This document shows, piece after piece, positions 345-57,967 of a stretch of DNA of 64,000 nucleotides. The translations under genes were made by a program, and so were the position numbers. Numbering within the stretch: position 1 is the stretch's first letter; every line of letters begins with the position of its first letter. The stretch spans positions 58,514 through 122,513 of the forward strand of contig JBEKXS010000001.1 in NCBI GenBank assembly GCA_049511795.1. The letters are read 5' to 3'. A model generated the notes under the pieces. That model did not search any database, was not told the origin of the DNA, and saw only the letters and a program-made list of their open reading frames with translations. The DNA is from Candidatus Pacearchaeota archaeon (lineage in GTDB: Archaea > Nanobdellota > Nanobdellia > Pacearchaeales > GW2011-AR1).

Positions 345-605
345 ATGACAAACGGAAGAGTTATACAATTCAGAAGAGGAGTAAATACTATTCGGGAAAG
401 GCATTTTATCATAGAACCTGAAGGAGTAAAAGACAGGAAAGAAGCTTCACAGCTTATAGGAAAAATTGTTGAATGGAAATCTCCTGCAGGCAAAATAATC
501 AAGGGAAAAATCACTGCTGCACACGGAACCAAAGGCCTTGTTCGCGTTGTCTTTGAGCGTGGATTGCCGGGCCAGGCATTGATAACAAAGGTGGAGATAA
601 AATAA
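345..605 (+). CDS. rpl35ae: Ribosomal protein L35Ae (eL33)
   Basis: 86-aa basic protein with eL33-like beta-barrel sequence pattern (GKIVEW...GKITAAHG...VRVVF). Followed directly by L10e. Confidence 0.55.
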   Translation: MTNGRVIQFRRGVNTIRERHFIIEPEGVKDRKEASQLIGKIVEWKSPAGKIIKGKITAAHGTKGLVRVVFERGLPGQALITKVEIK

Positions 606-606
606 A

Positions 607-1158: not shown

Positions 1159-1212
1159 CTTATTATTAACTATGTAGTAGTTACATCCACAATATTTATA
1201 AATATCAAAATC

Positions 1213-1812
1213 ATGAAAAAATATAATAAAATGGCTAAACAAACAAAACCAGACTTTCAGAAGTACCAGTATGGTGCATTAGCTGGAAGATTCCTGGCAT
1301 CCAAAGAAAGTGGTAGATATGCTCCCGGAGCTTTAGAAGTTCTTGCAGGCGCAAAAGGTCTTGATCTTGGCGAAGAAGCTCTTGGTTTCATAAGAGGAAC
1401 ACAGGCTTCTGAAAAAGGAATTCAAACAGCAGCAGGAATTTATACTGGTAAATTTGAAGAGAAAAGAGGAGAATATACTCCTGCAGAATTAGCTAATTGG
1501 TACGGACCTGTATTAGCTTATGCAAATTTAGAAAAAAAAGATCAGGATAAAATTCTTGCAACATTAAATGAGCATGATGAAACTTTAAATGCAATTAGAG
1601 AAGCTTCTGAAAAAGCAAATTACATTGTAGATGCTCCTGATGGACTTTTCACTGATGAGCAAAAAGATAGGGCAAAGAAACTTGTGGAAAAATATCAAAA
1701 AGTCTTGCTTGTAATAAATGTTCTTGACAACTATAAGTTTGAATCATTAAGAAGCGATGCAGTCACTGTAACAAGCGCAACAGATTTAAAGGGTCTAGCT
1801 TCTAAACTTTAA
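1213..1812 (+). CDS. Hypothetical protein
   Basis: 199-aa ORF with good codon structure and no recognised motif. Confidence 0.4.
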   Translation: MKKYNKMAKQTKPDFQKYQYGALAGRFLASKESGRYAPGALEVLAGAKGLDLGEEALGFIRGTQASEKGIQTAAGIYTGKFEEKRGEYTPAELANWYGPVLAYANLEKKDQDKILATLNEHDETLNAIREASEKANYIVDAPDGLFTDEQKDRAKKLVEKYQKVLLVINVLDNYKFESLRSDAVTVTSATDLKGLASKL

Positions 1813-1855
1813 TTTTATTTTAATTTATATTAATTTGTAAAAAATTATACATTTT

Positions 1856-1895
1856 GGGGCTTATTAAGCATTGATTTTTGTTAATGCTTGCCCAC
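1856..1895. terminator. GC-rich hairpin (GGGC...AAGCATT-loop-AATGCTT...GCCC) flanked by T/A runs, between convergent genes. Putative bidirectional terminator (element E1).
   Basis: Stem halves are reverse complements. T-runs lie on both sides. It sits between the stop of 1213..1812 (+) and the stop of 1913..2764 (-). A near-copy occurs at 16825..16868. Confidence 0.35.
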
Positions 1896-1912
1896 GAAAT
1901 TTTTATATTCAA

Positions 1913-2764
1913 TTATTCAATCAAATCCTTGACAAGTTGTGCCATTACATCCAAGAATTCTTCTGTCCTGTCCTGCCAAGCATCAATTTCAATACCACGA
2001 AGCTCATTAATTTCTCCGTGAGCTATTTTTTTATGAAGAACGAGCAAATCCCTGTACCATATTACATATTTCATGTTAAGCTTTTTTTCATCGACAAATG
2101 TTGTTTTCAAGTCAATTCCAACATGCTCTGGCGAAGCAGGAGGAACATTTGCGGCTATGAGTGCAGCATGAGCTGAATCAACCATCGCCCAATACAATCC
2201 TTCTATTGAGTTTAATACAGAAACTTTGCTTCTCATTATATGCATCGGAGCTCTCTGTAGTGCACTATATATTGCTTCTGGAGTTGATTTTATTTTTCCT
2301 TTTAATAAAAGACTTTTTAATGGGTCAAAAAATCCAGCCATATCAATCATTGCCTCTCCATAACGGAGAACATTAAGTACAACAGGATCTCCGCGCATCA
2401 AATCTTCCCACCATGTGCTTAGCTTGACAGTATTTATGTGCAAAGCCATTTGGTAAGGATTTGCCTTTATTATTTTTTCAAGCTCTTCCCTGTACCATGC
2501 AATTAATTCTTCATCCCAGTTTATTGCAACATCATCAAGAAGAATTATTATGTCAATATCAGACCCTGTCACAGCTGTCTGTTTTGCAGTTGAGCCAAAA
2601 AGAACAACTGACTTTATCAGCTTGTCAAATCTCTGGTAAGCTTTTGTTGCAAAATCCATTGCAATGTCACTTTCTTTTTTAAGCTGTAATGTAGGAATAT
2701 TTTTTGGAATCTTCGGAATTTTTAATTTAGAATTTGCTTTCTTCACAACTCTTTTTTTTGCCAT
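1913..2764 (-). CDS. Nucleotidyltransferase (minimal Pol-beta/MNT fold) with C-terminal helical domain
   Basis: VLFGSTAKQTAVTGSDIDIIILLDD matches the GS-x9-13-DxD nucleotidyltransferase signature. Confidence 0.5.
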   Translation of the reverse strand: MAKKRVVKKANSKLKIPKIPKNIPTLQLKKESDIAMDFATKAYQRFDKLIKSVVLFGSTAKQTAVTGSDIDIIILLDDVAINWDEELIAWYREELEKIIKANPYQMALHINTVKLSTWWEDLMRGDPVVLNVLRYGEAMIDMAGFFDPLKSLLLKGKIKSTPEAIYSALQRAPMHIMRSKVSVLNSIEGLYWAMVDSAHAALIAANVPPASPEHVGIDLKTTFVDEKKLNMKYVIWYRDLLVLHKKIAHGEINELRGIEIDAWQDRTEEFLDVMAQLVKDLIE

Positions 2765-2814
2765 TTTATATGCTACAATATATATTATCCAATATAGTTT
2801 TTAAATTTACTCAA

Positions 2815-4620
2815 TTACTCCATCGGTCTTCCAGACATTCTGCTTCCTTGAGCTCCAGGAGATTGTCCGCCAAGTTCTGAAGGAAGTCTTGAAAATCCTG
2901 AACCAAAAGTTTCATAATTTATCTGAGGAAGCCAATTTCCTGCAAGCCCTCCCTGATATCCTTGGTATAATCCAGATGCCTGAGACCAATAAGGCGCCAT
3001 TTTCATACTGTAAATAGGAGAACCTAAAGATTCAAGATTTTCTTGGAAAGGAGGTGTTCCGAAATGCTTCCACCAATGCCCCGCTTCAATGATTTTTCTT
3101 GCATCATATCCTTTTTCTCCAAGCTTTTCCATAATTTGTTTGAAGGGAACATTTCCCATTCCCATTGGGAGCTCTGTGTGCTCCATTCCAAAATTATCAG
3201 AAAGATGAATTTGTTTTAATACGGGAGCGACTTTTTGAGATTCTTTAACTATATCTTCTTCTGTATAACCATATCTTCTGAGAATATTTATATGTCCCAC
3301 ATCCCATGTCGCACCAATTAGTTTGTTTGCCTGTTTTCTTGCTTCATCTTCTGTCATACCAGATTTTTTGGCATTGTCTATGAAAACATCTCTTGTTTTC
3401 TCAACAACAGCTCTTACATCTTCTCCTTTGCTTAATGCATGTGTTGCAGGAGGATTTTCTATTACAAGAACAGGAGATGTATCTTTGTATTTGGAGTATG
3501 CTTGCCAAGCAGCGTTTCCAAAAGTTTCTGCAGTTTTTTTAATCTGAAATTCTTCTAAAGGAACCCATAATTTAGGAGATTTTTCTTCCAAAACTTCTGT
3601 CATTTGTCTTAATGCTTCTGAATATACTTTTGGATTAAGGTATCTATTCGGATTTATTTTGCCATCTTCCATTATCCCAACAGTTTTTCCATAATCCTCT
3701 GAAGCTTTTTTTAATTCGTCCATCCTTTTTTGGTCACCATCCATTTTTGCAAGCTCATATGCTTTGCTAAAAAGAGAATCAGCTGATATTCTTGCCTGGT
3801 CTATAAATTCAAATGCCGAATGTATTTTGCCAATTTCTGCCCTTTCTTCTTTTGAGAATTCGTTTGGATTAACTGCTCCTGCCTTAAGCTGTGTGAATTG
3901 TTGTATAAACATTGGGTGCACATCATGCATAATTCTTTCTGCGTTTTCCCTGTTAACTTCAACCTGAAAGAGCGAATTCTTCCATTCTGTATTGTTTGCG
4001 CTATCAAGGCGCATTTCAGGAGTTTTGGTAAATTCCTTTATTTCTGATCTACCTGGATGAAACTCCTTTTCTGCTTCCAAAGCTGTAATTCTTCCTGACT
4101 CTCTATTTATTGCCATAAGCTTCTGATATTCTTCATTTTCTTTTCTTTTAGCAGGTGGAAGAAGTTCTGAACCCTGTATCCCCTCTGATGTATGAAAATT
4201 TACAAAAATATTTCCTTGTGGATTCAAATCATGAGACCTTAACAAAGCTTCTGCAACTTTTCTTTCTGCAACCTCCCTCTCTGATTCACTAAATCCTGAG
4301 CGAGGGTCAATGCCTGCAACATCTATTACAGGTCCATGCATGGAAACATTAACTCCGGTCAGTTTTGCCATTCTATTAACTTCTCTTAAATGAGGCTGGG
4401 GCATAGAATCAAAAACTTCCGGAATAACAGCGGTTACGTCGACATTTCTTGCACCAGAGGAAATAGTTGTATTAATACTTTGCAAGATATTTGCAGTATC
4501 TGGTTTTGTCGTCATGCCAAGGCTTCCTGCCCTAGAATAAACATTGTCAGGAGGAACCATTGTAGAATAACCTCCCTGATAAATATCTGATATTGTATAA
4601 CCTCTTTTTTCCTCTGCCAT
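2815..4620 (-). CDS. Xylose-isomerase-like TIM-barrel protein (AP endonuclease family 2 / sugar-phosphate isomerase superfamily) with a large internal coiled-coil insertion and a G/Q-rich C-terminal tail
   Basis: Motifs VNVSMHGP, LVIENPPA (like EndoIV ENTAG), WDVGHINIL (like CxDTCH) and IHLSDNFG..HTELPMGMG (like HLNDS...H) occur in the canonical order. Confidence 0.35.
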   Translation of the reverse strand: MAEEKRGYTISDIYQGGYSTMVPPDNVYSRAGSLGMTTKPDTANILQSINTTISSGARNVDVTAVIPEVFDSMPQPHLREVNRMAKLTGVNVSMHGPVIDVAGIDPRSGFSESEREVAERKVAEALLRSHDLNPQGNIFVNFHTSEGIQGSELLPPAKRKENEEYQKLMAINRESGRITALEAEKEFHPGRSEIKEFTKTPEMRLDSANNTEWKNSLFQVEVNRENAERIMHDVHPMFIQQFTQLKAGAVNPNEFSKEERAEIGKIHSAFEFIDQARISADSLFSKAYELAKMDGDQKRMDELKKASEDYGKTVGIMEDGKINPNRYLNPKVYSEALRQMTEVLEEKSPKLWVPLEEFQIKKTAETFGNAAWQAYSKYKDTSPVLVIENPPATHALSKGEDVRAVVEKTRDVFIDNAKKSGMTEDEARKQANKLIGATWDVGHINILRRYGYTEEDIVKESQKVAPVLKQIHLSDNFGMEHTELPMGMGNVPFKQIMEKLGEKGYDARKIIEAGHWWKHFGTPPFQENLESLGSPIYSMKMAPYWSQASGLYQGYQGGLAGNWLPQINYETFGSGFSRLPSELGGQSPGAQGSRMSGRPME

Positions 4621-9170: not shown

Positions 9171-9632
9171 ATGCAAAACACAAAAGGTTTATCGGAAATT
9201 GTGGCTACCTTGATAATAATTCTATTGACACTTGTTGCTGTAGGAATTATTTGGGTTGTCATAAGAGGCGTAGTTACCAACGGAGCTGGTCAGATAAGTG
9301 TCAGTGCTGAATGTACTGCTATTAATTTGAATGCTGTTTCTGTTCAGGAAACACCTGCAGGATCAGGAATTTATTCAGTTATATTGCATAGAGCAGCTGG
9401 TGGCGGAAATCTTAGTGGTATAAAGGTTAGCGTTCTTAATGCTAACGGTTCAAGTAGTGGGCCAATGGATTTTGGGTCACTTCCAGAGTTAGGTCAAAAT
9501 ACTATGTCACTTAATACTGCAAGCTTAGGATCTAATGTAACGCATGGAAACTCAATAGAGTTTACACCATTCTTTACTGATCCATCAGGAAATCAACAGC
9601 TCTGCTCACAAACACAGACATTCCAATTTTAA
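9171..9632 (+). CDS. Archaeal type IV pilin-like protein (class III signal peptide)
   Basis: N-terminus MQNTKG|LSEIVATLIIILLTLVAVG has a prepilin-peptidase-type KG/L cleavage site plus a hydrophobic helix. Strong AAAGGAGG RBS upstream. Confidence 0.5.
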   Translation: MQNTKGLSEIVATLIIILLTLVAVGIIWVVIRGVVTNGAGQISVSAECTAINLNAVSVQETPAGSGIYSVILHRAAGGGNLSGIKVSVLNANGSSSGPMDFGSLPELGQNTMSLNTASLGSNVTHGNSIEFTPFFTDPSGNQQLCSQTQTFQF

Positions 9633-22681: not shown

Positions 22682-22727
22682 GAAATAAAAGCTTTTAAAT
22701 CTCTAAACACCTCTGAAAAGCATTAAA

Positions 22728-24230
22728 ATGTGCAGATTAAAATTGTTTTTCATTGGGTTAATCTTCTCTTTATTCGGCATTTTGTTTATTGTTCAATTAG
22801 TCAGTGCAACAGGCCCAAATATATTCCCAGGGATATTTTATGATAATGTAACAAATATAACAATAACAATCGGGCAGAACAACTCAATAACTAATTTTTA
22901 TATGAATACTTCAAATTCTTATTTCGATAATCAAAGTATTGTTTTTTCAACTAATTCTGGAAGTGCAACACAAAAATTTACAGTTTCTAGTATGCTTGGT
23001 TCTGTTGACGGGCAAGTAAGCATACAAAAAGGTATGCAAATACCTAAATTCCTAAGTATGAATCTTCATCCTCTTTCTCCATGGGATGCTTATCTTCCAG
23101 AAGCTCTTTCAGGGTATAACTTAACAATAAGTCAAATAAACAATGATTGCATAACAAACAACTGTTCAATATTCAACCAATATCTAATTAATGATAACAT
23201 AATCATTCCATCAAAAACAAATCTTATATTCACAAAAAATAGCACAAATTACAGTTTCGCAAATGATTATGGTTATGATAATATAAGCAGTTATCAAAGT
23301 AGTATAAGCCAAATAATAACTGATAGCATAATGCAAATGAACATATCAAATATAATATCAGACATGCTGCCAATGATAACAAATAACTTGACATATTACA
23401 ATGTAGATGTTTCACAACTTCTTCTAAGTGCAATTAATTCTAATTATAGAGTGAGTTATATAAATCTCTCAAAAATCAACTTTAAAAATGGTAGTTATAC
23501 TATTCCTATTACAATAGCTAATGGAACTAATTCAATCATAAAAAATATTTTAGTAAAACTTCAGGACATTTCAAACACAACTCAAATAGCAGATACAACT
23601 CCACCAGTCATAACAGTAATTTCTCCAAATAATAATGAATTATTTAATGTTTCAAATGTTACTCTTGACATAAATACAAGTGAAGATGCAAGTGGGTGGT
23701 ACAATTTGAATGGAACAAATGTTTCTATGACAAGAACTTCCCCTACTTCGTTTGAAAATGATTTATCTCTTTCAGATGGAAATTATGTTGTGATTTTCTA
23801 TGCAGAAGATTTATCAGGGAATATTGGACAAACAACAACAAACTTTAACATAAACACAACAATAATTTCCAGTAATAATATAGGAACTAATAATAATAGT
23901 AATAGTAGTAATAATGGAAATAATGGTGGATCTTCTGGAGGAGATAGTAATGGAGGAAGTTCTGGTGGTGGAGGCGGTGGTGGAGGAAGTAGTGGAGGTC
24001 ACAGTTCTTATGTAAATACACCTCTTAGCAATTCTTTGCCTAATCAAAATGCAAACCCCCAAACAGGAACAATAACTGCACAAGCAACAGCTCCATTAAA
24101 CAGCAAGAACAGCTCATTTGATATAACTGGAGTTTTAGTTATTCTGGGGATATTCGCCGGACTTGGCATTTTTTTAGCTATAATAACTTTTTCATTAAAT
24201 CATAAAAAAATTAGAAATGAAAAATTATAG
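22728..24230 (+). CDS. Secreted Asn/Ser/Thr-rich surface protein with Gly/Ser linker and C-terminal TM anchor plus basic tail
   Basis: Signal-like N-terminus, poly-G/S tract, C-terminal hydrophobic helix followed by KKIRNEKL. Paralog of 26255..27865. Confidence 0.45.
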   Translation: MCRLKLFFIGLIFSLFGILFIVQLVSATGPNIFPGIFYDNVTNITITIGQNNSITNFYMNTSNSYFDNQSIVFSTNSGSATQKFTVSSMLGSVDGQVSIQKGMQIPKFLSMNLHPLSPWDAYLPEALSGYNLTISQINNDCITNNCSIFNQYLINDNIIIPSKTNLIFTKNSTNYSFANDYGYDNISSYQSSISQIITDSIMQMNISNIISDMLPMITNNLTYYNVDVSQLLLSAINSNYRVSYINLSKINFKNGSYTIPITIANGTNSIIKNILVKLQDISNTTQIADTTPPVITVISPNNNELFNVSNVTLDINTSEDASGWYNLNGTNVSMTRTSPTSFENDLSLSDGNYVVIFYAEDLSGNIGQTTTNFNINTTIISSNNIGTNNNSNSSNNGNNGGSSGGDSNGGSSGGGGGGGGSSGGHSSYVNTPLSNSLPNQNANPQTGTITAQATAPLNSKNSSFDITGVLVILGIFAGLGIFLAIITFSLNHKKIRNEKL

Positions 24231-24855
24231 GAATATAAGGTCAAAAGTAATTGGTCTGGGTATTGCTGCTATGGCTACTGCTTTCGCATCTTGCAAAGAT
24301 GTACCATTTATGCCAAGATGGGATACTGATTTTTACATGCCTTTGAGCACAAGAGCAATTTATCTCAAGGATTATTTTCAATTTGGATTTATACCTTCAG
24401 GAATTTCAGCAAATGTAAGCTTTTCTCCTGAAAAGCAGGAACTTCCAGGAGTAGTCAGAGATGCTTTAAAAAATATAGAAACAAATTCTACAAGAGCAAG
24501 AACAGTTCTGACCCTAAACTTATCAAAAAGTACTCCAATAACAACAAGTGATACAATATTAATAACAAAAGATTCTGCAAGTCTTACAAATCCTGGCTTG
24601 GAAGATATTGTCTTTCCAGTAAATCTAGGCAGTAATGATACTTTAGTAACAGATTCTATACAATTAACTATGCCTTCAATTAGGATGCTGCAAGATGCAG
24701 CATATAATGGGTCTCCATTATGGGTTCAAATGAGAGGTTATGTAAGCAATGATAGTAGTTATTCTATCCCAATAAATGCCTCAGACTCTATTACTGCAAA
24801 ATTATCAATAACAGCTAGAATTTTTATATCAGAGAGAGGTGGTGGAAAACCATGA
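24217..24855 (+). CDS. Putative lipoprotein (bacterial-style lipobox AFASC)
   Basis: Signal peptide ending in ...ATAFASCKD. Overlaps the upstream and downstream genes. Confidence 0.35.
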   Translation: MKNYRNIRSKVIGLGIAAMATAFASCKDVPFMPRWDTDFYMPLSTRAIYLKDYFQFGFIPSGISANVSFSPEKQELPGVVRDALKNIETNSTRARTVLTLNLSKSTPITTSDTILITKDSASLTNPGLEDIVFPVNLGSNDTLVTDSIQLTMPSIRMLQDAAYNGSPLWVQMRGYVSNDSSYSIPINASDSITAKLSITARIFISERGGGKP

Positions 24856-26195
24856 AGAAGATTTTACTGGGGTTAGTTAGTCTTCTACTCCCAACAGTAC
24901 TTAATGCACAACTCCCAAATCCATCGACTCGTGCTCTTGGAATGGATGGAGCATATACTTCAATAGCTCAAGGTTATGAATCCACATTTTGGAACCCAGC
25001 AATGTTGGCAACAGAAGGTAGACCTAAATTTAGTATTAGTCTGCCTCATGGAGATTTAGAAATAGGTAGTAATATCTATAATTTTTCTGATTTTGGAAAA
25101 TATGCAAATCATTACCTAAGTGACTCAGATAAGCAAACTTTGTTGAGTAAACTAGAACCAGGTCTACCACTTAGAATCCATACAGAATTTGGTGTTGTAC
25201 CTTTTGGATTATCAATCGGTCAATTTGCTATGGCAATTGGCACATATGGCGAAGGTAATGCGTCAATTAGTAATGATGCTATGCAATTGTTATTGTATGG
25301 TAACTCTACTCTCAGTAATCCAAATCAATTATTTACTGCTAACGGATCAAGAGGAAATGGGTTAGTTGCAACAACCGCTGCAGTAAGTTTTGCATTACCA
25401 TTCTCTTTACGAAACAATCGCTTATCTTTTGGTATTACAGGCAAGTATACAATTGGTCACTTCCTGGCTTCTGTAGAGGATTTTGGTTCGAATATAAACA
25501 CAAATCCTTCATTTCATATAACAGAAGCAGCACAAGCTATTTATACAAATTATAGTAGTGATTGCAAAAGTATCAATCCATTTAGTAATAGTGATTGTGG
25601 GGGTATGGCAGGAAGAGGCATAAGTGCAGATTTTGGAGTTACTTTGCAGATTCCAAATAGGGATATAACAATTTCAGCTGTTTTAGTCAATGGTCTTGGT
25701 AGTATGACTTGGAACCAAAATCGTTTTGTTTATAAGCGCACAAAATGCCAGATAGATTATATGTCATCAGATAATTTTATTAAGACATGCACTGATTCAA
25801 CAAAACTAACAACAGAAGAATCAATCAATGCCGATTCACAGGCACGTGTTTTTCGTGATTCTTTGTTGCATAACTCAAATTTCTCTAGATTAATCCGGAC
25901 CGGATTTGCACTTAAAAAGAAGAATCTTACTATAGGTAGTACAATGCAGTTTAGATTGGGTAAAGGATTTGATGAACAACCGGAACAACTTATTTCTGCT
26001 GGTTTGGAATACAATATTTTAGGTTTTCTACCAGTTAGAATTGGGTCTTCATGGGATTTTAATAAAACCAAAACTTTTTCAGCAGGTACAGGACTTAAGA
26101 TTTCAAGAGTAAATGTTGATGTTTCTATAACAAGTATCTCTGGACCATCTTATTCAGGACTACGATTAGGAGCTGGTACCAGTCTTATATGGTAA
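24852..26195 (+). CDS. Beta-barrel outer-membrane-protein-like protein (signal peptide, alternating amphipathic strands, C-terminal ...SLIW)
   Basis: MKKILLGLVSLLLPTVLNAQ signal. Many short alternating hydrophobic/polar stretches. Terminal aromatic residue typical of bacterial OMP beta-barrels. Confidence 0.4.
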   Translation: MKKILLGLVSLLLPTVLNAQLPNPSTRALGMDGAYTSIAQGYESTFWNPAMLATEGRPKFSISLPHGDLEIGSNIYNFSDFGKYANHYLSDSDKQTLLSKLEPGLPLRIHTEFGVVPFGLSIGQFAMAIGTYGEGNASISNDAMQLLLYGNSTLSNPNQLFTANGSRGNGLVATTAAVSFALPFSLRNNRLSFGITGKYTIGHFLASVEDFGSNINTNPSFHITEAAQAIYTNYSSDCKSINPFSNSDCGGMAGRGISADFGVTLQIPNRDITISAVLVNGLGSMTWNQNRFVYKRTKCQIDYMSSDNFIKTCTDSTKLTTEESINADSQARVFRDSLLHNSNFSRLIRTGFALKKKNLTIGSTMQFRLGKGFDEQPEQLISAGLEYNILGFLPVRIGSSWDFNKTKTFSAGTGLKISRVNVDVSITSISGPSYSGLRLGAGTSLIW

Positions 26196-26254
26196 AGAAT
26201 TGCTGCGTCTCTAAGTAAAAAAGAAGTATTATTATGTACAACAAAAATTTATAA

Positions 26255-27865
26255 ATGTTTAAGAACTCTTTAAAAAGAATTAAAATGAACAACTCCAAAT
26301 TATTTCTTGTTGGAGTGATGATATCTTTATTTGTTATTGTCGCTCTTGTCCCTTCTCTAAATGCTATTTCTTCTAGCGATATTAATCAGTTTCTTCAGGA
26401 AAGTGTCACAAATCTTACAGTAACAATACACCAAAATGATGCACAAGCAAATTTATACTTAAATACAAAAGGAACATCTTTTGACCGGCAGATAATAACT
26501 TCAAATAATATCAATATTACAGATTTGCTGAATAAATTAGGAGAAACTTCTCTATGCAATAAACTACCTTTTAATTGTACTAATTTTAGTCTAACTTTTA
26601 ATATTTCCGATGTCCTTAATGGAGTTAATTGGTCCATAGGAATAACAAAAGGATCAAACATAACTCAATTAAGTAATTTATCAACTTCAGAAAATGTTCC
26701 TCTTGAAATGATTAGTTCTGGTTGGCCGGATATAAGGTCAATTAACTTCTCAAACATAACGACCATCACAGAGATTAACAATTATCTAGCGGCACATTCT
26801 CTTAATTATACTTTTGACAGAAATATAACTTTCACAAAACAGGGGACAGATTACATTTTATGGAATAGCGACGGGTATGGGGATCTTGGTTCTGCAACAA
26901 AAGATAATATAAGAAAGATAATAAGTGATGATGTTGAAAGCATGACAATCCAGCAAATTGTTGATAAAGCAATTCCTGTGTTAAACAATTTGTCAAATGG
27001 AAGCGGAGATACTCTTAACAGTTTATTGAATGGAACTAACTTGAATTTCATAGTAACTGCAGTTGATCTTTCAAAGGTTAATTTAGAGGATGGAAATTAT
27101 GTTGTTCCTATTACAATTAGTGATGGGACAAATGCTTACACAAAGAAAATCTACTTAGTTTTGCAGGGAATTAAAAACATAGGAACTGATAATTCAACTG
27201 GAGGTGTTTATGAATCAAGCAACCCAGAAATTCAGAATTATCTTAATAATATAATAGGATTCAATGATGGAGCAGTAACTGTTTCATTATTTGATGATGG
27301 TTCAAATTATCCATCAATTTCAGGAACTGTTATTAAATATCTAGATTTTACATTCACTCAGGGGATAACTGGAAGTGCAATAATTAACTTTAAAATTCCT
27401 AATTACAAAAACATTGATCCAACAAGAATAGTTTTATACCATTTTGATGGAACAAATTGGAATCAATTATCAACACATTATAACGGTTTAGATAGCAGCA
27501 AAAATTATTTATTTGATGCAACAACAACAAGCTTCTCACCATTTGCAATAGTTGAAACAGTTGCACCCATTGCAATAGCGCCAGCAATAGGTAATAATGG
27601 CGGAGTTTATGGAGGAACATTTGTAACAGCACCTATAGCAACAACTCCGGCTGTAACTACACCTACAGCTAATACTCCAACAACACCAACAGCAACAGGA
27701 TTCAACTTCTTCAGGGCACTTGGTGCAGTCGTGGGAGCTCCTAACAGCACAGGAACAGGCATTGTAGTCTTTATTGTGGTTATCTTTATTGTTGGCGGAG
27801 TAATTACAGTATTTGTAATGAATAGGAAGCCATCAAAGAAGAAAGCAGAAAAAGACGAAGAATAA
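26255..27865 (+). CDS. Secreted Asn/Ser/Thr-rich surface protein with Thr/Pro linker and C-terminal TM anchor. Paralog of 22728..24230.
   Basis: Shared blocks with the paralog (NLTVTIHQNDAQANLYLNT vs NITITIGQNNSITNFYMNT; DLSKVNLEDGNYVVPITISDGTN vs NLSKINFKNGSYTIPITIANGTN). C-terminal TM plus a KKKAEKDEE tail. Confidence 0.45.
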   Translation: MFKNSLKRIKMNNSKLFLVGVMISLFVIVALVPSLNAISSSDINQFLQESVTNLTVTIHQNDAQANLYLNTKGTSFDRQIITSNNINITDLLNKLGETSLCNKLPFNCTNFSLTFNISDVLNGVNWSIGITKGSNITQLSNLSTSENVPLEMISSGWPDIRSINFSNITTITEINNYLAAHSLNYTFDRNITFTKQGTDYILWNSDGYGDLGSATKDNIRKIISDDVESMTIQQIVDKAIPVLNNLSNGSGDTLNSLLNGTNLNFIVTAVDLSKVNLEDGNYVVPITISDGTNAYTKKIYLVLQGIKNIGTDNSTGGVYESSNPEIQNYLNNIIGFNDGAVTVSLFDDGSNYPSISGTVIKYLDFTFTQGITGSAIINFKIPNYKNIDPTRIVLYHFDGTNWNQLSTHYNGLDSSKNYLFDATTTSFSPFAIVETVAPIAIAPAIGNNGGVYGGTFVTAPIATTPAVTTPTANTPTTPTATGFNFFRALGAVVGAPNSTGTGIVVFIVVIFIVGGVITVFVMNRKPSKKKAEKDEE

Positions 27866-38198: not shown

Positions 38199-38273
38199 GG
38201 CTCCGTAGCTCAGCATGGATAGAGCACCGGACTTTTAATCCGGGTGTCGTGGGTTCAAATCCCATCGGGGCCA
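38199..38273 (+). tRNA. tRNA-Lys (UUU)
   Basis: Perfect cloverleaf: acceptor GGCTCCG/CGGGGCC, D-stem GCTC/GAGC, anticodon arm CCGGA-CTTTTAA-TCCGG, T-arm GTGGG-TTCAAAT-CCCAT, discriminator A. Confidence 0.8.
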
Positions 38274-38645: not shown

Positions 38646-39056
38646 ATGCATAAGAAAAAAAAGGTGTGGATTTCTGTCATTGTGATTGTTGCAGCGATTG
38701 TCATATTATACTTTGTATTAAAAAGTCCACAAACAGGAACAAATGTAAATAATAACAATGAGAATGCTTCTGCTCCAAATCAAAATGCTCCATCTTCTGC
38801 AAGCACACCAAAAACAAATTTAGCATTATATTATAATCTTGACTGGCAAAAAGATTATATTGACAAGCCGAATAATATTGTTTCAATTTCTATTTCAGGA
38901 AATTACAACGCGATAAATATAAGCAGCCAGACAGAAATTTCACAAGTAACACTGAGCGGAACAAACAACAAAATAACATTCTGCAACAGCACATATCCTG
39001 CGCCTGTAATAAACAAAATCGGAATCAACAACGTAATAAATTATGTTGTCTGCTGA
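38646..39056 (+). CDS. Membrane-anchored or secreted Asn-rich hypothetical protein
   Basis: N-terminal TM/signal helix, Asn-rich linker. Confidence 0.3.
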   Translation: MHKKKKVWISVIVIVAAIVILYFVLKSPQTGTNVNNNNENASAPNQNAPSSASTPKTNLALYYNLDWQKDYIDKPNNIVSISISGNYNAINISSQTEISQVTLSGTNNKITFCNSTYPAPVINKIGINNVINYVVC

Positions 39057-39152
39057 TTTTTTTCTTAATAGTATAATTTAGTCGCATAATGCTTTTAAAT
39101 AAAATTCCCTTATGTTCTCTATCGGATTTTTTGGTAAATCCATTATAAAAAA

Positions 39153-39410
39153 ATGAGGGTTTTGCTTGAAAGTATTGTTGTTAATGGTATGAAGTTGTAT
39201 GCCCCTATTTCTCAAAATGGCGGGAACTACTCAGCATTAATTGGCAGAAAATTTTATGTATGTGAAAAAAGCAAGAAAGGCTACACAATAAAGGGTGATA
39301 ATTTAAGGGCCGCGATGGTTGGAGATGACCCTTTCTTTCCGGGAAAAGAAGATGATGACAAAGACAAAAGAGTAATTTATGATGCAGTTCCTGAACTGGT
39401 ATCCCCTTAA
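39153..39410 (+). CDS. Hypothetical protein
   Basis: 85-aa ORF. Confidence 0.25.
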   Translation: MRVLLESIVVNGMKLYAPISQNGGNYSALIGRKFYVCEKSKKGYTIKGDNLRAAMVGDDPFFPGKEDDDKDKRVIYDAVPELVSP

Positions 39411-39520
39411 GGGAGTTTTTTCATGATTTTTGGCAAATTCCTCTAAATCGCGACGGGACAGGGTTCTGTAAAGTTATCGGTTGGTAGAAAAGGTTAAAAG
39501 TTGGGATTCTTTAGAATTTT

Positions 39521-39703
39521 ATGGTTACGCCGAGCAGGGTTAGGATGAACAAATTAAGGCATAAGCACGGAATGATAGCCAAAGAAAAACAGGCAGAAAA
39601 CGAAGAAAATAAGTCTTGGAGAGAAAGAAGTTCTAAATCAATATCTCAAGAAGAACATCAAGAAAGACTAAATAAACTGAAAGAAATTGGATTATTAAAA
39701 TGA
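39521..39703 (+). CDS. Small highly charged protein, translationally coupled (ATGA) to the downstream gene
   Basis: 60 aa, K/E/R-rich. Its stop overlaps the start of 39700..40338. Confidence 0.3.
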   Translation: MVTPSRVRMNKLRHKHGMIAKEKQAENEENKSWRERSSKSISQEEHQERLNKLKEIGLLK

Positions 39704-40338
39704 GTGAAAGTAAAGCAAAGGCAAAACTGAACGGAGATGTAATAAAACTACCCCTTAGTTTTTCTCAAGGCAGTATTAGGGTAGCAGACAATAAAGGAAA
39801 TCACTTTCAAAAACCAACACAGCAAATTATGGATAAGGAATTGTATATTGAATGGATGATAACTAATGATGAAATTAAATTGTTGTCAAAACTTATCCCC
39901 AAGAAAAATATAGGAGATTTGATAAAAGTGTTACAAAGAATAAATAAGTTTGCAGAAGCAACGAAATATTCTAAAAGAGAATCAGATAGAGGAGAAAAAG
40001 TTATTGCTGAATTTGAGGGCTTTAAGATATATCATTATACAGATGATTTTAATTCTTTTGAGAAAGTTCTTGGTTCTACATTAAAAGTAAGATTAACATT
40101 TAAGTTAGGAGATTATGGTGTTACATCCCATCCTCATATGTATGTTCTTGTCCCATTCAATTTTAAGACATTAAAAATAAAAAATATCTCTGGGAATGTT
40201 AAGATAGGAGAACCTCTTGGAAAAAAGTGTTTTGCAGAACTAAATTTGACAGAAGAAGAACTTAAAGAGATAATATTAACACTTGCTCACGCTTCAAGTA
40301 ATCATAGAAATGATTTGATTAAAGTTCTTGAATCCTGA
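39700..40338 (+). CDS. Hypothetical protein, candidate restriction endonuclease partner of the adjacent methyltransferase
   Basis: Convergent with, and overlapping by 20 nt, the 3' end of the MTase gene. No clear catalytic motif. Confidence 0.25.
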   Translation: MSESKAKAKLNGDVIKLPLSFSQGSIRVADNKGNHFQKPTQQIMDKELYIEWMITNDEIKLLSKLIPKKNIGDLIKVLQRINKFAEATKYSKRESDRGEKVIAEFEGFKIYHYTDDFNSFEKVLGSTLKVRLTFKLGDYGVTSHPHMYVLVPFNFKTLKIKNISGNVKIGEPLGKKCFAELNLTEEELKEIILTLAHASSNHRNDLIKVLES

Positions 40339-41455
40339 AATCCAAAACATCATTTTTCTTTATTGACTTACTGCCTACTCTATGGGTTATGTTTCTAAAA
40401 TGTTCTAAATTCTTATTAAGGGCTTTACAAACAGATTCTTTTATCTTTTTATTGCTATTGAACTCATCTTTAAATTTAAAGACAAAAAACATATCATTCA
40501 AAACATCTTCTTTGACATTAATTAACCCTGATTTTCCCACGCTTACATTACCCACTCTTGTAACTGCAAGAGCATAATCCTTAACATCTTTTTCTTTTGG
40601 TATTTCTTGGTGTTGTAAAATGTTAGCCCCTGAAATATTGTTTTTTGTATAATCTCTTTGATAATGGGCTTTTTCATTAGATAAGAAATCAAATAAAGGT
40701 TTTCCTTCTTGATGGTTTTTTATTTTGTATAAAAATGTTTTTGGGATTAATTCTTCTGTTAGTAATAGATTTTTGTCTAAAACTTCTTTAACATTCTGTC
40801 CATCTTCATAAAGGATTATTATTTTATCTCTGAATTTATCTATATTTGTAAAGATAGCAAAACAGCAAGGTATAGGTTCTTCAACCATATTCTTACTATT
40901 CTGATAAATTATTATTGTGCTAAATCTGTTTATGATTTCTTTCTTAACTTCTTTATTTTTCTTTGCTATGAAAAAGGAGATAGGCAAAACAAAAGCTATA
41001 CTTGAATTTTCATCTTTAAGATGTTTTATAGATTTCAAAATAAAAGCATTTTCTATTTGAACTTTCTCTTTTTTCTTGAAGGATTCTGTTAAATAATCTT
41101 CATTATTCTTATACTTCTTTGGGAAAAAATAGCTGTCTTTGACATTATATTTTGTAAATGGTGGATTTCCTATAATCAAATCAAACTTTTTATCTAAATC
41201 AAACAAAAAGAAATCACAGGGCTTACTTGTCAGATTCTCATCTATTTCACACTCTTGAATATTGTTAAAACCCTGCTCTTGCATTCCCTTTACAAAGTTT
41301 CTTGTCCCTGCTGATGGTTCTAAAACATTTATATCTCTATTGTAATCTTTATATTCTAAAAGAAGTCTAATTACTCTATCAACAACATTTCTTTTAGTGA
41401 AATATTGTCCCCAAACAAATTTCTTATCGCCCATATCTATTTTATGCTTTGACAT
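40319..41455 (-). CDS. N6-adenine DNA methyltransferase (gamma-class, TaqI-like order: motif I then IGNPPF) with C-terminal target-recognition domain
   Basis: Motif I VLEPSAGTRNF. Motif IV IGNPPF. About 180-aa C-terminal variable domain. The annotated start lies 3 nt from the transposase stop, so the real start may be the internal Met at about 41434. Confidence 0.6.
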   Translation of the reverse strand: MSKHKIDMGDKKFVWGQYFTKRNVVDRVIRLLLEYKDYNRDINVLEPSAGTRNFVKGMQEQGFNNIQECEIDENLTSKPCDFFLFDLDKKFDLIIGNPPFTKYNVKDSYFFPKKYKNNEDYLTESFKKKEKVQIENAFILKSIKHLKDENSSIAFVLPISFFIAKKNKEVKKEIINRFSTIIIYQNSKNMVEEPIPCCFAIFTNIDKFRDKIIILYEDGQNVKEVLDKNLLLTEELIPKTFLYKIKNHQEGKPLFDFLSNEKAHYQRDYTKNNISGANILQHQEIPKEKDVKDYALAVTRVGNVSVGKSGLINVKEDVLNDMFFVFKFKDEFNSNKKIKESVCKALNKNLEHFRNITHRVGSKSIKKNDVLDFRIQEL

Positions 41456-42505
41456 TTTTTAACTCTTTTGACTTGCTAAGTATATCAAGTCAAGCCATTT
41501 ATTTTTCCCAAGATTAAGATTAACCCCTGCTTGTTCAATAGGAGTTTTATTTATGCCTTGATGGATTCTTATAAAATTGTAATAAACAACAAACAAAGAC
41601 AAAATAGCTTCTGCACTTTCAGGGCTTTTGAAATTTCTCATAACCTTGATTCTTGCCCTGATAGTACCTTGTATTCTTTCTATTATGTTATTTCTTCTGT
41701 CTTCACTTGCTTTTAATCTTGTATAAACTTCTCTATCTAATTTTCTGTTTCTTGAACCCCAAACTTTTCTATATGCTTTCTTATAAGCAAAAGCTGAATC
41801 TGTGAATAATGATAATGGTTTATTCTGTGCTTTGAAGAAAAGCATTTTAGCACTCTTTGTATCTCTTTTTGTTGAGTAATGAGAAGAAACCAAAACTCTT
41901 GTTTCCTTATCTATCATATCCCAAAAATAATGCTGTTCATTCTTACATTTAACAAAAATCTCATCTGCGTGATAAATTCTTGAAAGATTTAAGTCAAATT
42001 TTCTCTGAAAATCTTTTAACAATATAGCATATCTTCTTATCCAGTTTAGAACAGCTTGATGGCTTACTTGATAATCTGAAAACTGGTTAAAATGCTCTTT
42101 GACTTTTCTTAAACTCAACCCATTCATATAAAGAGAAACGCACTGGGTTATTACTTCTCTTTTGTGCTTTGTTTTGAAGAAACCATCATCAACCACAAAA
42201 CATTCAGAACAGGAATTACATTTCCATCTTTGCTTTTTTGTGGTATGGTTGAATCTGAAACCCCACTTAATAACTTCTTCAGATTTACAATAAGGACAAA
42301 CCTTCGGCTTGATAACCGAAACTAATTTATAGTTCTGTGTCTTCTGATTTTCGTTATTCATTTTGCGATGGGTAACCTGCCCTTCGGGGCAGTCATATTT
42401 ATTTGTATAAATATTAGATTAGTAAATAACTAATCTATTTAAATGTTTCTATGAGAAGTAATTAGGCACTACAATTCACTATTATTAGGCACTACAACAA
42501 GGGGA
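41400..42505 (-). mobile_element. IS6-family insertion sequence. Exact ends not resolved. Region bounded by the MTase start and GGCACTACAA repeats.
   Basis: Transposase ORF. Upstream GC-rich UUCG hairpin (42377..42392). IS26-IR-like GGCACTACAA copies at 42465..42474 and 42488..42497. Confidence 0.35.
41459..42361 (-). CDS. tnp: IS6-family DDE transposase with N-terminal zinc-ribbon
   Basis: CPYC...CNSCSEC zinc finger. YHADEIFVK, DKETRVLVSSHYSTKRDTKSAKMLF, FTDSAFAYKKAYRKV and RNFKSPESAEAILSLFVVYYNFIR blocks parallel the IS26 Tnp26 blocks WHMDETYVK, DSRGRTVDFYLSSRRNSKAAYRFL, NTDKAPAY, GFKSMKTAYATIKGIEVMRAL. Confidence 0.7.
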   Translation of the reverse strand: MNNENQKTQNYKLVSVIKPKVCPYCKSEEVIKWGFRFNHTTKKQRWKCNSCSECFVVDDGFFKTKHKREVITQCVSLYMNGLSLRKVKEHFNQFSDYQVSHQAVLNWIRRYAILLKDFQRKFDLNLSRIYHADEIFVKCKNEQHYFWDMIDKETRVLVSSHYSTKRDTKSAKMLFFKAQNKPLSLFTDSAFAYKKAYRKVWGSRNRKLDREVYTRLKASEDRRNNIIERIQGTIRARIKVMRNFKSPESAEAILSLFVVYYNFIRIHQGINKTPIEQAGVNLNLGKNKWLDLIYLASQKS

Positions 42506-42696
42506 GAAAGTGTCATAAATATCTGTTCGGCAAAAATCTCGTCAGATTCTTTCCTTAATTTTTTATTAAGAAATTTATCAAGTTTTTTCTGATAGTTTGG
42601 AATATCTATGCCGTACTTTTTATCAAATTCATTAGTAAGTTCAATAATTTTTTCCCTCATTTCTACAACCTTCAAGTCATTTTCTTTCCAGTTCAT
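42469..42696 (-). pseudogene. Truncated hypothetical gene (75 aa) whose C-terminus is encoded by the GGCACTACAA repeats. Probable remnant of the partner of the upstream AbrB-like gene.
   Basis: Start overlaps the stop of the AbrB-like ORF (ATGA). The last 12 codons read through both repeat copies. Confidence 0.3.
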
Positions 42697-42851
42697 TTTT
42701 TCTTTTTCTCCTTTTCTGTTTTCCTGATTTTTACTTCAAGAATATCTCCAAGTTCCAAGCCCAATTTTTCTATTGTTTCTATTGGAATCGTAATTACTTT
42801 GGAACTACCCCCATCCCTGATTTTTGCGTCAAATTGGCTTTCAGTTTCCAT
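42696..42851 (-). CDS. AbrB/SpoVT-MazE-like small DNA-binding protein (antitoxin-like), 51 aa
   Basis: Hand-translated: METESQFDAKIRDGGSSKVITIPIETIEKLGLELGDILEVKIRKTEKEKKK. Swapped-hairpin AbrB-type pattern (GSSKVITIP...LGL..GD.L). Confidence 0.4.
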
Positions 42852-42955
42852 AATATATCTTAAACCTTTTTTAACAAGATTAAATATACATTTGACTATA
42901 AAAAACTTGTGTTTTTACAAAAGATTTAAAAGTAGTCATTTACTAACCTTTCTAT

Positions 42956-43216
42956 ATGGCAAAGGCAATACCAAAGTGGGTACAAGAAAGATTGTCAAGA
43001 CTTTGGAAAAAATATGAGGGGAAAGACATAACATATGAAAATATAGAAAAAACTTTGACTATGGATGATAAAAATACAATAAATGCTTTTTTGAATGAAC
43101 TCAAAACAGCAGGATGGATAGAAGTTAAATCAAATGAATCAGACGCAAGAAAGAAAATATATATTTTAAAATCTCCAAGCGTGGTTATGTTGGAAATAAA
43201 AAAGGAAGAAAAATGA
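42956..43216 (+). CDS. Winged-helix DNA-binding protein
   Basis: 86 aa. ...INAFLNELKTAGWIEVK... recognition helix plus wing. Translationally coupled (ATGA) to the downstream gene. Confidence 0.4.
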   Translation: MAKAIPKWVQERLSRLWKKYEGKDITYENIEKTLTMDDKNTINAFLNELKTAGWIEVKSNESDARKKIYILKSPSVVMLEIKKEEK

Positions 43217-44331
43217 TAATACACGATGTTATTACTGAGGCAGTTGATAAAGATTCAAGACTGGTTTTGAAAAGAATAAAAACTTCTGAAGGAGATTTTT
43301 CAAACAGAAAACTTGCTATTACAAACTTTATGTATAATTGTGAAAGGGACAGGATGAAATATGGACAACCATTATTTAATGGAATTTTCCAAACGTGTCA
43401 TATCAGATTTGATAGGATTCTTAATGACTGGGATTATCTTGGGCTTGAAAACTCCAAAAAACACGCACAGAAAAACAATCGTATATTTTTGCCTTACAAA
43501 CAAAGAAATGAAGAACAGCTATCCCAAATGAAATGGGAAAATTCTGTTAGCGATTTCAATACTATGGTTGGAAAGGTTGATAATGTTCCATTTGTCCTGC
43601 CTCTTTATGCAACCCTTAATGATTGGAAAAAATACAGGGCAAACGCTATTTCAATATTAAACCAAAATCAAACATTAATTCCTATAATCTCATCAAAGCA
43701 TAATGTTTCACATTTTCCAACAATAATAAAATATGAAAAAGGAAAAGATAATCTTATAGGGATAAATTCTTATGAATTGAGTGACATAACAGAAAGAACA
43801 AACCTTTCATATTTGAGAGCAATAAACAGCGATACAAAAACAGGTGATAAAACTTCTTTATTTGTAAATTTCAATTATCCAAGAATCCTTACAAGATTAT
43901 CAAATATCGCTGGTTCTTTTGCATTTACTTGCTTTGCAGGAGATATTTTTTCTGAAAGAGCAAGTTTCCCACAAGGAATGAAAAGAGAATCTGTTAATCT
44001 TATGTTTGACAGAAAGCCAGAAGAATATTCTTTTTATGATTCTAAAGAAAAGAAATTCAATAAATCCTTGCCTCAGAAAGAATGGTATGGTGTTGATTTA
44101 ACCAAAAGTTCTATGGCTAACGTTTCAGTTCTTCACGGATTAAGTGGTTATCAAGTAATAAAATGTTTAAGTCACATTAAACAACAAGATGATTTAGATT
44201 TAATTAATGCTTTAATATTGAATCAGCAAGATGTTTTGAAATTTATGAAAAATTATACTGGTTGGAGTGTATTCTTAGACAGAATGGTTATCCCATCTTC
44301 ACAAACGCAACAAACCCTCTTAAAATTCTAA
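43213..44331 (+). CDS. Hypothetical protein (372 aa), no recognisable domain
   Basis: Good coding structure. No motif matched from memory. Confidence 0.35.
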   Translation: MIIHDVITEAVDKDSRLVLKRIKTSEGDFSNRKLAITNFMYNCERDRMKYGQPLFNGIFQTCHIRFDRILNDWDYLGLENSKKHAQKNNRIFLPYKQRNEEQLSQMKWENSVSDFNTMVGKVDNVPFVLPLYATLNDWKKYRANAISILNQNQTLIPIISSKHNVSHFPTIIKYEKGKDNLIGINSYELSDITERTNLSYLRAINSDTKTGDKTSLFVNFNYPRILTRLSNIAGSFAFTCFAGDIFSERASFPQGMKRESVNLMFDRKPEEYSFYDSKEKKFNKSLPQKEWYGVDLTKSSMANVSVLHGLSGYQVIKCLSHIKQQDDLDLINALILNQQDVLKFMKNYTGWSVFLDRMVIPSSQTQQTLLKF

Positions 44332-44617
44332 TAGTCACGTGACACAAGGAAAAAACATTAAGGGGTTGCTTGTTCTTTCCAAGCAAGTAAATCCCTTAAT
44401 GCCTTCTTAAAAATATTAATTTTCCATTCCTTTTAAACTTTTATTCAATTTTCACCAACCGAAGATTTGACAGAACCACGGGACAGAAACATTTTTAAAC
44501 CAAATTTTGATATCTTTTATTATTGATGAGTTGTCAAAACTCTTCTGGAAAGTGCCTAAAACCCCCTGCCAGAAAAATTAAATTCACCGTCGGTAACTGT
44601 CTAAAACTGCCAAAAAT

Positions 44618-57848: not shown

Positions 57849-57881
57849 TTTGTTTTTTTGATTAAATTAAAGAGAATAAGG

Positions 57882-57923: not shown

Positions 57924-57967
57924 ATGCTAGTACTTCTCTTTGTATAAAAAATAAAGAATAAGAAATC

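Follow-up and report, generated by a model that had tools for sequence, protein, structure and literature searches.

The window, a 64-kb stretch (64,000 nucleotides) of a Candidatus Pacearchaeota contig, contains two adjoining plus-strand genes at the positions given in a preliminary description of this DNA. The upstream gene (positions 24217 to 24855) encodes a 212-amino-acid (aa) predicted lipoprotein with a lipobox, and the downstream gene (24852 to 26195) a 447-aa DUF5723 protein of the FadL/PorV structural class; both are of Gemmatimonadales origin (see below). The reported overlap of the two genes is real and amounts to 4 nt, in the form of an ATGA stop/start. The junction (24832 to 24855, plus strand) consists of the purine-rich sequence GAGAGAGGTGGTGG and this overlap, a combination that suggests translational coupling of the lipoprotein and barrel genes. 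The archaeal orthologues share this −4 overlap, as do some of the Gemmatimonadales loci.

The flanking regions are archaeal, as had been described, with genes for ribosomal proteins S27e and S24e, Spt4, an Rpb7-like RpoE, a PGF-pre-PGF surface protein, and uL16. Further archaeal-type ORFs encode RNA polymerase and EF-2, and an Lhr gene lies on the minus strand. Directly upstream of the pair, a 500-aa archaeal surface glycoprotein (22728 to 24230, plus strand) has an N-terminal signal/TM segment, a weak Ig-like domain, a Gly/Ser-rich linker, 25 NxS/T sequons, and a C-terminal TM anchor. The stop of its gene overlaps the lipoprotein start by 14 nt, and the protein is lineage restricted, the sole other full-length homologue being found in a sister archaeon. 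Directly downstream lies the gene for a 536-aa surface glycoprotein (26255 to 27865, plus strand) that has a PGF-pre-PGF domain (TIGR04213, 1.3e-11), 18 sequons, and a C-terminal TM anchor. A TTTATAAA box at 26248 to 26255 makes the second ATG (26285) the probable start of its translation. The two glycoproteins are clear paralogues in a Smith-Waterman shuffle test (z = 26.7), and their unrelatedness, suggested by a BLASTP search with composition adjustment that returned no similarity, was set aside in light of this result. A TATA-box-like sequence, TTTTAAAT, found by eye 28 to 35 nt 5′ of the ATG of the 500-aa gene (22693 to 22700, plus strand), is a candidate for an archaeal promoter that would serve the 500-212-447 gene string. 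A scan for terminators and sigma-70 sites, which is ill-suited to archaea, found no terminator-like sites inside the cluster and no excess of sigma-70 matches over shuffled sequences (31 versus 24.6 ± 3.9 expected). The pair thus lies between two archaeal surface glycoproteins that are paralogues in tandem, the whole forming a compact and probably co-transcribed cluster, and this four-gene arrangement is common to three archaeal lineages, that of the window and two others.

The 447-aa protein begins with a Sec-type signal peptide, MKKILLGLVSLLLPTVLNAQ (residues 1 to 20; 24852 to 24911, plus strand), whose A-Q cleavage motif is kept across the family and which is followed at the cleavage site by LPNPS. 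The mature N terminus, LPNPSTRALGMDGAYTSIAQGYESTFWNPAMLATEG (residues 21 to 56; 24912 to 25019, plus strand), is the most conserved part of the protein, with a conservation of 0.84 versus 0.68 elsewhere in the barrel. In an HMM alignment (6h3i_F) it matches the N-terminal RAxGLG...WNPA segment of PorV, which corresponds to the plug/hatch region of FadL-type barrels. At the other end, the C-terminal strand and stop codon (26163 to 26195, plus strand) carry the beta-signal ...LRLGAGTSLIW. The terminal aromatic residue that had been singled out in the ending ...GAGTSLIW holds across the family as W or F, LI[WF] being conserved in ~30 homologues. With its cleavable Sec signal peptide and a beta-signal ending in an aromatic residue, the protein has the classical features of a bacterial outer-membrane protein (OMP).

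The predicted structure is a FadL-type barrel (class FadL/TodX/PorV) with the conserved WNPA N terminus, although the N-terminal 40 residues are of low confidence. The "dozens" of amphipathic segments in the preliminary description were an overstatement, the model showing about 17 to 18 beta-strand segments (DSSP), and the supposed specifically Bacteroidetes-like character of the signal peptide was not borne out, the relatives being Gemmatimonadota. A soluble beta-sandwich, the fold that had been set against a barrel, was not seen for the 447-aa protein and is instead that of the upstream lipoprotein. The protein is a member of Pfam DUF5723 (PF18990), with 65.9 bits versus a gathering cut-off of 26.8 (E = 7e-18); the match spans residues 55 to 422 and profile positions 6 to 371 of 376, and precomputed matches of homologues agree. 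NCBI labels this exact protein "DUF5723 family protein [Candidatus Pacearchaeota archaeon]." PorV is the only solved relative by sequence (PDB profile match 6h3i_F, E = 0.0044). The expectation of a PorV, FadL, or DUF OMP family was borne out: the protein falls in DUF5723, has a FadL-type fold, and gives a weak signal for PorV/PorQ. The literature contains no functionally characterized member of DUF5723.

The lipoprotein starts with MKNYRNIRSKVIGLGIAAMATAFASC, followed by KDVPF. Its lipobox codons, A-F-A-S-C (residues 22 to 26; 24280 to 24294, plus strand), end in Cys26, the predicted lipidation site. The AFASC motif had been called lipobox-like, and indeed all 12 homologues in the alignment share its Cys, as does almost every representative of the family. 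Compared with the pattern expected at the end of the signal peptide, [LVI][ASTVI][GAS]C with an unvarying Cys, the F-A-S-C of the window qualifies as a relaxed lipobox because of its Phe at −3, a residue that many bacterial homologues (AF[AT]AC) also have there. No other ORF within the 64-kb window has a lipobox. The mature protein is predicted to be a jelly-roll beta-sandwich behind the tail CKDVPFMPRWDTDFYMPLST, which is the most conserved segment of the lipoprotein. The family is small (46 clusters worldwide) and uncharacterized. Lipidation is carried out by Lgt in bacteria and by AliA/AliB in archaea, and no gene for any of these enzymes was identified in the window. AliA and lipobox lipoproteins have been reported to be common in DPANN archaea, with gaps (PMC12462473).

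Homologous loci in GTDB (~80) belong almost entirely to Gemmatimonadota, those of Gemmatimonadales having 42 to 52% identity. The only other archaeon among them is a Nanoarchaeota-labelled MAG (64% identity), and three archaeal barrel lineages were found among 5.8 billion proteins. A lipoprotein gene for ...AC followed by K[DE].PF.PRWD stays upstream of the barrel gene across Gemmatimonadota, while the other neighbours vary. In our trees, which are neighbour-joining only, the archaeal barrels are monophyletic in 100 of 100 bootstraps and all archaeal lipoproteins form one clade in 81 of 100, both nested in crown Gemmatimonadales. The recipients are thus monophyletic, narrow in distribution, and nested among broadly distributed donors, and the placement of the archaeal copies as one clade inside the bacterial ones indicates one ancient transfer. 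An ancestor of a small group of Pacearchaeota (DPANN) received both genes together from Gemmatimonadales, in a single event. That the pair came from a bacterium by horizontal transfer, one of the options first considered, is strongly supported by this donor clade, the nested phylogeny, and the joint transfer. Two cysteines of the barrel, C299 and C313 (25746 to 25790, plus strand), occur in every one of the three archaeal barrels and in none of the 28 close bacterial homologues, indicating a change that arose after the transfer. A peptide-pattern scan of metagenome contigs yielded no more archaeal copies, which carries little weight given the poor patterns, and a scan of viral contigs yielded no relative that would point to a viral vector. 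An AT-rich DUF5723 protein (P0034), considered as a second archaeal case, was rejected as bacterial, with a T9SS cargo gene adjoining.

Two adjoining bacterial-type genes in an archaeal MAG are what a chimera classically looks like, and the preliminary description had listed a bacterial fragment mis-joined into an archaeal contig, by assembly or binning, among its options. This explanation is effectively refuted. Six independent assemblies (JGI, ENA, and Logan), made from six different samples by three pipelines, are 99.995 to 100% identical to the window; five of the six span both junctions, and the pair lies deep inside contigs of 324 to 508 kb. The source samples are peat and soil. The codon composition is ameliorated: GC content is 34 to 36% here versus 63 to 74% in every bacterial homologue locus, and the GC3 of the pair (0.18 to 0.20) is close to that of the flanking surface-protein genes (0.19 to 0.22). 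Two more archaeal lineages have syntenic orthologues. Amelioration this complete implies that the pair has long been resident, which argues as well against a neutral or decaying passenger, acquired by chance, functionless in the archaeon, and heading for loss. Such a passenger would fit the fates of the pair in related archaea, one of which (L097) has only the lipoprotein, at a different locus, and another (L099) a truncated lipoprotein without the barrel, so that the barrel is dispensable in the wider archaeal group. It would also fit the faster evolution of the pair, which shows 57 to 64% identity versus 90 to 92% for neighbouring housekeeping genes of the same two genomes. However, both genes are full length and intact in three lineages that have diverged to dS ~1 to 2.6, with dN/dS within archaea of 0.10 to 0.15 for the barrel and 0.21 to 0.27 for the lipoprotein, values that include an unsaturated comparison. 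Moreover, 88 of 112 bacterially conserved columns (79%) are kept, and a new invariant Cys pair has been added, making a passenger very unlikely. Purifying selection of this kind suggests that the pair is expressed and useful in the archaeon and is neither a contaminant nor a dead passenger.

We consider it probable (roughly 0.75) that a single transfer from Gemmatimonadales provided a retained pair whose products form a lipoprotein-barrel complex at the cell surface, most plausibly acting on hydrophobic ligands or a surface partner. Both proteins would be exported by Sec. The archaeal lipoprotein pathway would lipidate the lipoprotein at Cys26 and leave it anchored to the external side of the cell membrane. 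The conserved tail behind the Cys would bind the barrel, a docking that resembles the binding of surface lipoproteins to FadL-type barrels in FCB-group bacteria. The barrel, being plugged, would not be an open pore. The complex would then most plausibly capture or pass on hydrophobic molecules, or else keep hold of a partner on the surface, where the cell comes into contact with others. We know of no archaeal machinery for inserting beta-barrels and of no outer membrane in archaea of this kind, and no genes for Omp85/BamA, Lol, Lpt, TolC, or other OMPs were found in the 64-kb window or the 20-kb flanks examined. Such cells are lipid auxotrophs and must scavenge lipids or other hydrophobic molecules. 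It is conceivable, though less likely than not, that a single-membrane DPANN archaeon uses a bacterial-derived, plugged FadL/PorV-type barrel with its lipoprotein as an envelope device for the uptake of lipids or hydrophobic compounds without BAM; the barrel could sit in the membrane of the archaeon itself or in that of an attached cell.

The same genes might instead serve as an effector directed at a host. The archaeon would live on a diderm bacterium, perhaps one of the Gemmatimonadales, and the lipoprotein would escort the barrel into the host outer membrane, where the inserted barrel would let hydrophobic nutrients or lipids pass. The identity of the donor lineage hints at physical closeness, the form in which the signal peptide, the beta-signal, and the plug motif have been kept is compatible with bacterial OMP biogenesis, and the position of the pair among fast-evolving surface proteins is typical of host-interface loci. 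To our knowledge, no DPANN archaeon has been demonstrated to have a bacterial host. According to a review, the abundance of Pacearchaeota correlates with bacterial communities, their hosts are unknown, and a bacterial host of DPANN archaea is an open possibility (PMC6349945). A secreted protein would also reach the host outer membrane from outside, whereas BAM acts from the periplasm, and since the transfer is ancient, the donor need not be the present partner; we therefore regard an effector as improbable. A genuine archaeal OMP in an outer-membrane-like second envelope layer, also among the options first raised, is highly unlikely. A classical OMP with an intact beta-signal under purifying selection would suit such a layer, and a few archaea, Ignicoccus and Altiarchaeum among them, do have double membranes (PMC7613921). 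However, a single barrel family was seen, with no further OMP genes in the window and flanks examined, and the loss of the barrel in close relatives is hard to reconcile with a structural role in the envelope.

Transmembrane beta-barrels of the outer-membrane class are regarded as characteristic of diderm bacteria and of the organelles descended from them, and they normally need BAM and an outer membrane. At the locus described here, such a barrel and its lipoprotein have long been kept intact, under selection, within a surface-protein cluster of ultra-small archaea. If the barrel is embedded in a membrane, then an OMP folds without BAM, an unrecognized outer layer exists, or the barrel is planted in a partner cell, and each of these possibilities would shed light on the cell biology of DPANN archaea and on how they interact with hosts. 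Should the pair of bacterial origin indeed work as an envelope device, it would be the first OMP-class transmembrane barrel to function in an archaeal envelope and a candidate part of the DPANN-host interface. The pair gives a first lead to the function of DUF5723 and of a small, uncharacterized lipoprotein family. Related archaea that keep the pair, the lipoprotein only, or a remnant provide a natural experiment on the contribution of the barrel, and with donor, polarity, and selection all known, the archaeal pair is a clean case.

Among known systems, PorV and PorQ of Bacteroidota are the shuttle and anchor barrels of type IX secretion in the outer membrane. The window protein scored 42.8, 13.8, and 24.3 bits with the NCBIfam models NF033709, NF033710, and NF052325, below their respective cut-offs of 90, 250, and 325, and its kinship with PorV/PorQ appears to be one of distant relatedness only. 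PorV and PorQ have PorU or PorZ as partners, whereas here the partner would be a small lipobox lipoprotein and the carrier is an archaeon. No T9SS domain was found in the window or the archaeal flanks examined, and an association with type IX secretion components or CTD-bearing cargo was seen only for a distant bacterial DUF5723 member. The FadL/TodX channels for hydrophobic compounds (Toluene_X, PF03349) align structurally with the barrel at only 9 to 12% identity; the barrel has no Toluene_X match at E ≤ 0.1, and genes for fatty-acid or aromatic catabolism are not near the archaeal pair. BamG and PorV, both FadL-family barrels, anchor surface lipoproteins or proteins in FCB bacteria, and BamG-BamH unites a FadL-type barrel with a surface lipoprotein in the Bacteroidota/FCB BAM complex (PMC12611786, PMC12578637). 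However, BamG is a Toluene_X member and the archaeal barrel is not, BamH is not among the structural matches of the lipoprotein, and neither BamA nor BamD is associated with the archaeal pair. We found no evidence that the Gemmatimonadales pair is part of BAM. An identity of the pair with BamG/BamH was accordingly rejected and kept as an architectural analogy only.

Within DUF5723, which has been documented only as predicted or detected OMPs, for example in P. gingivalis OMVs and in Brachyspira, the window protein is a full-length member above the gathering score. The members discussed earlier are all bacterial and come from diderms, whereas the window protein groups with archaeal ones, in a subclade that is AT-rich, has the extra Cys pair, and lies within an archaeal surface-protein cluster. 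A literature search on FadL, PorV, or DUF5723 barrels in DPANN or other archaea returned nothing relevant. Like other inter-domain transfers into DPANN archaea, the pair consists of lineage-restricted bacterial genes that are nested in a bacterial clade, ameliorated, and retained; here, however, what was transferred is a barrel of the outer-membrane class together with its lipoprotein, and not genes for metabolic or cytoplasmic functions.

Both open reading frames claimed in the preliminary description are present exactly as reported. The lipoprotein gene (24217-24855, +) specifies a 212-aa product whose signal peptide ends in A-F-A-S-C, and the barrel gene (24852-26195, +) encodes 447 aa, with the N-terminus MKKILLGLVSLLLPTVLNAQ and the C-terminus GAGTSLIW. 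The two genes overlap in ATGA, just after a purine-rich GAGAGAGGTGGTGG, and the start of the lipoprotein gene overlaps by 14 nt the stop of the upstream 500-aa gene (22728-24230, +); a terminator scan found no terminator-like site within the cluster. The surface glycoproteins flanking the pair, this 500-aa protein and a 536-aa protein (26255-27865, +), are tandem paralogues (z=26.7), lineage-restricted and heavily sequon-rich. The 536-aa gene probably starts at its second ATG (26285); a TTTATAAA box at 26248-26255 overlaps the first. The surroundings are archaeal, with genes for ribosomal S27e and S24e, Spt4, an Rpb7-like subunit, archaeal-type uL16, RNA polymerase and EF-2 ORFs, and a PGF-pre-PGF surface protein. 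An NCBI entry identical to the barrel is named “DUF5723 family protein [Candidatus Pacearchaeota archaeon]” and occurs on contigs as long as 508 kb.

An assembly chimera, one of the origins initially considered, is ruled against by identity among multiple assemblies, matching GC3, and archaeal synteny. The window is matched at 99.995 to 100% identity by six contigs that differ in sample and pipeline (three JGI, one ENA, and two Logan). Five of these run across both junctions, upholding continuity across 24.1-24.3 kb and 26.15-26.3 kb at the contig level. The GC3 of the pair is 0.18 and 0.20 versus 0.19 and 0.22 for the flanking archaeal surface protein genes, while every bacterial homologue locus has a GC content of 63 to 74%. 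The order surface protein/lipoprotein/barrel/surface protein is common to two more archaeal lineages, whose barrels are 64% (L007/L012, a 351-kb “Nanoarchaeota archaeon” contig) and 60% (L092) identical to that of the window. Wider synteny between L007 and the window comprises HtpX, metallophosphoesterase, Lhr, NrdR, and ribonucleotide reductase. L007 and L092, with barrels 76% identical to each other, come from one ENA sample (ERZ27233565); thus, related carriers of the pair coexist.

Horizontal acquisition from a bacterium, also proposed at the outset, is borne out by the Gemmatimonadales matches, the nested trees, and the conservation of the pair as a bacterial unit. When one genome per GTDB species was scanned, 80 loci were recovered, almost all of them from Gemmatimonadota, with 42 to 52% identity to the barrel in Gemmatimonadales and 22 to 29% in other Gemmatimonadota and Eisenbacteria. 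In these bacteria the lipoprotein gene always precedes the barrel gene, and its product starts ...AAFAAC|K[DE]VPFAPRWDADMYMPLST, compared with ...TAFASC|KDVPFMPRWDTDFYMPLST in the window. The Gemmatimonadales pair is preceded by an FHA/Ser-Thr kinase/PP2C/FHA-trypsin cluster and faces peptidoglycan-recycling genes. At three such loci (L009, L093, and L095) the conserved upstream cluster begins with DZR-FHA, and the facing genes encode an SSF transporter, GH3 (NagZ-like), AnmK, and a MurQ-like protein; this neighbourhood may be a clue to the native role. Distant Gemmatimonadota retain nothing of this arrangement except the lipoprotein-barrel pair, which marks the pair as the conserved unit, and the archaea carry exactly that unit. 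Amino acid composition assigns only three barrels and three adjacent lipoproteins, out of a 5.8-billion-protein collection, to the AT-rich archaeal type. Neighbor-joining trees place the archaeal barrels together as a single clade (100/100) nested inside crown Gemmatimonadales. A scan of viral contigs found no viral carrier of the pair. We consider this account of its origin solid.

An exhaustive profile search with the lipoprotein revealed copies lacking the barrel in other archaeal contexts. L097/L098 (GC 0.42) encodes a full-length, divergent lipoprotein (38% identity) whose lipobox and tail, ALSNC|DLPFGPRWDADLYMP, are intact, near L35ae, archaeal uL16, and a nucleotidyltransferase; the neighbourhood is syntenic with window positions 600-4600 (57 to 80% identity), and the gene downstream of the lipoprotein lies on the opposite strand. 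In L097 this stand-alone gene (1613-2260) sits between the nucleotidyltransferase gene and a 191-aa gene, which adjoin each other in the window (1213-2764); its locus therefore differs from that of the window's pair. In L099/L100, a 112-kb groundwater contig (GC 0.35) with diphthine synthase, FlaI-like ATPase, and TrmBL2, the lipoprotein copy shows 56% identity across residues 12-148 and ends abruptly thereafter, with no barrel remnant in any frame. In L099 (10001-10950) the lipoprotein remnant is followed by a minus-strand tRNA-like T-arm sequence and three direct repeats of TTGTGGCTAAAAAGGT, which may be an integration or deletion scar. Every archaeal lipoprotein belongs to a single clade (81/100) nested in crown Gemmatimonadales. 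The most parsimonious history has an ancestor of the present Pacearchaeota group acquiring the pair once, long ago, after which the window's clade kept both genes, L097 kept the lipoprotein alone, and the copy in L099 decayed.

Other features of the window were also recorded. A low-GC island (39000-44500; 0.28-0.31 versus 0.35) just after tRNA-Lys (38199-38273) holds an Eco57I-like methylase (40319-41455, -), an IS240-type DDE transposase (41459-42361, -), and unannotated ORFs, and is probably a mobile or restriction-modification island. Two tandem secreted Ice_binding-like proteins (56142-58927, -; PF11999, E=4e-42 and 2.5e-76) are encoded, the first of which also has a C-terminal TM anchor. 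A 153-aa ORF (9171-9632, +) without a Pfam match has the class-III (pilin/archaellin-type) N-terminus MQNTKGLSEIVATLIIILLTLVAVG.

Between archaeal lineages, dN/dS is 0.10 to 0.15 for the barrel and 0.21 to 0.27 for the lipoprotein, in a set including the L007-L092 comparison, where dS is unsaturated (1.0 and 0.5); the values are 0.06 for HtpX, 0.05 for Lhr, 0.14 for the neighbouring phosphoesterase, and 0.18 to 0.40 for the flanking surface proteins. All three archaeal copies retain 88 of the 112 columns that are ≥95% conserved in bacterial barrels, and an invariant Cys pair (C299/C313), found in none of the bacterial sequences, has arisen in the archaeal clade. The low dN/dS, retained columns, and gained cysteines argue that the pair is functional and adapted in archaea; neutral decay is very improbable. 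The pair evolves fast (57 to 64% identity versus 90 to 92% for housekeeping neighbours), a rate typical of proteins at a surface or interface. The barrel's loss in relatives speaks against its being essential to envelope structure.

Lipoprotein and barrel each carry a Sec signal peptide, the lipobox Cys is invariant, and the barrel is of the FadL/PorV class with a conserved plug-type N-terminus and beta-signal; the genes are tightly coupled and under purifying selection. In FCB-group bacteria, FadL-family barrels are often membrane platforms for surface lipoproteins or proteins, and PorV acts as shuttle and anchor in T9SS (PMC12611786, PMC12578637). Lipobox lipoproteins and a candidate lipidating enzyme, AliA, are reported to be common in DPANN archaea (PMC12462473). 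We infer that a lipid anchor would tether the lipoprotein to the external side of the archaeal membrane, where its conserved tail would hold the barrel; the barrel is plugged and so would not be expected to form an open pore. At the cell surface the complex would operate together with both flanking glycoproteins, and its most plausible task would be to capture or pass on hydrophobic molecules or to hold a surface partner. The weak point of this model is that archaea are not known to have machinery for inserting barrels, and no genes for it lie within the 64-kb window. Its insertion into the outer membrane of a diderm host is unlikely, and a true archaeal outer layer housing it, as the preliminary description had envisaged, is very improbable.

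Gene transfer between domains into DPANN archaea is, in general, a familiar phenomenon. We found no description in the literature of an outer-membrane barrel and lipoprotein retained and adapted in an archaeon, and the public record on the archaeal pair is automatic annotation only. The barrel falls within DUF5723. In L101 (2384-5403), the gene for a distant, AT-rich bacterial barrel of this family immediately precedes one for a Peptidase_M6 protein with a T9SS Por_Secre_tail, an arrangement consistent with a PorV-like role for some members. The archaeal barrel shares its fold with PorV/PorQ, FadL/Toluene_X, and BamG but belongs to none of them by sequence; like them, it probably works with a lipoprotein partner.
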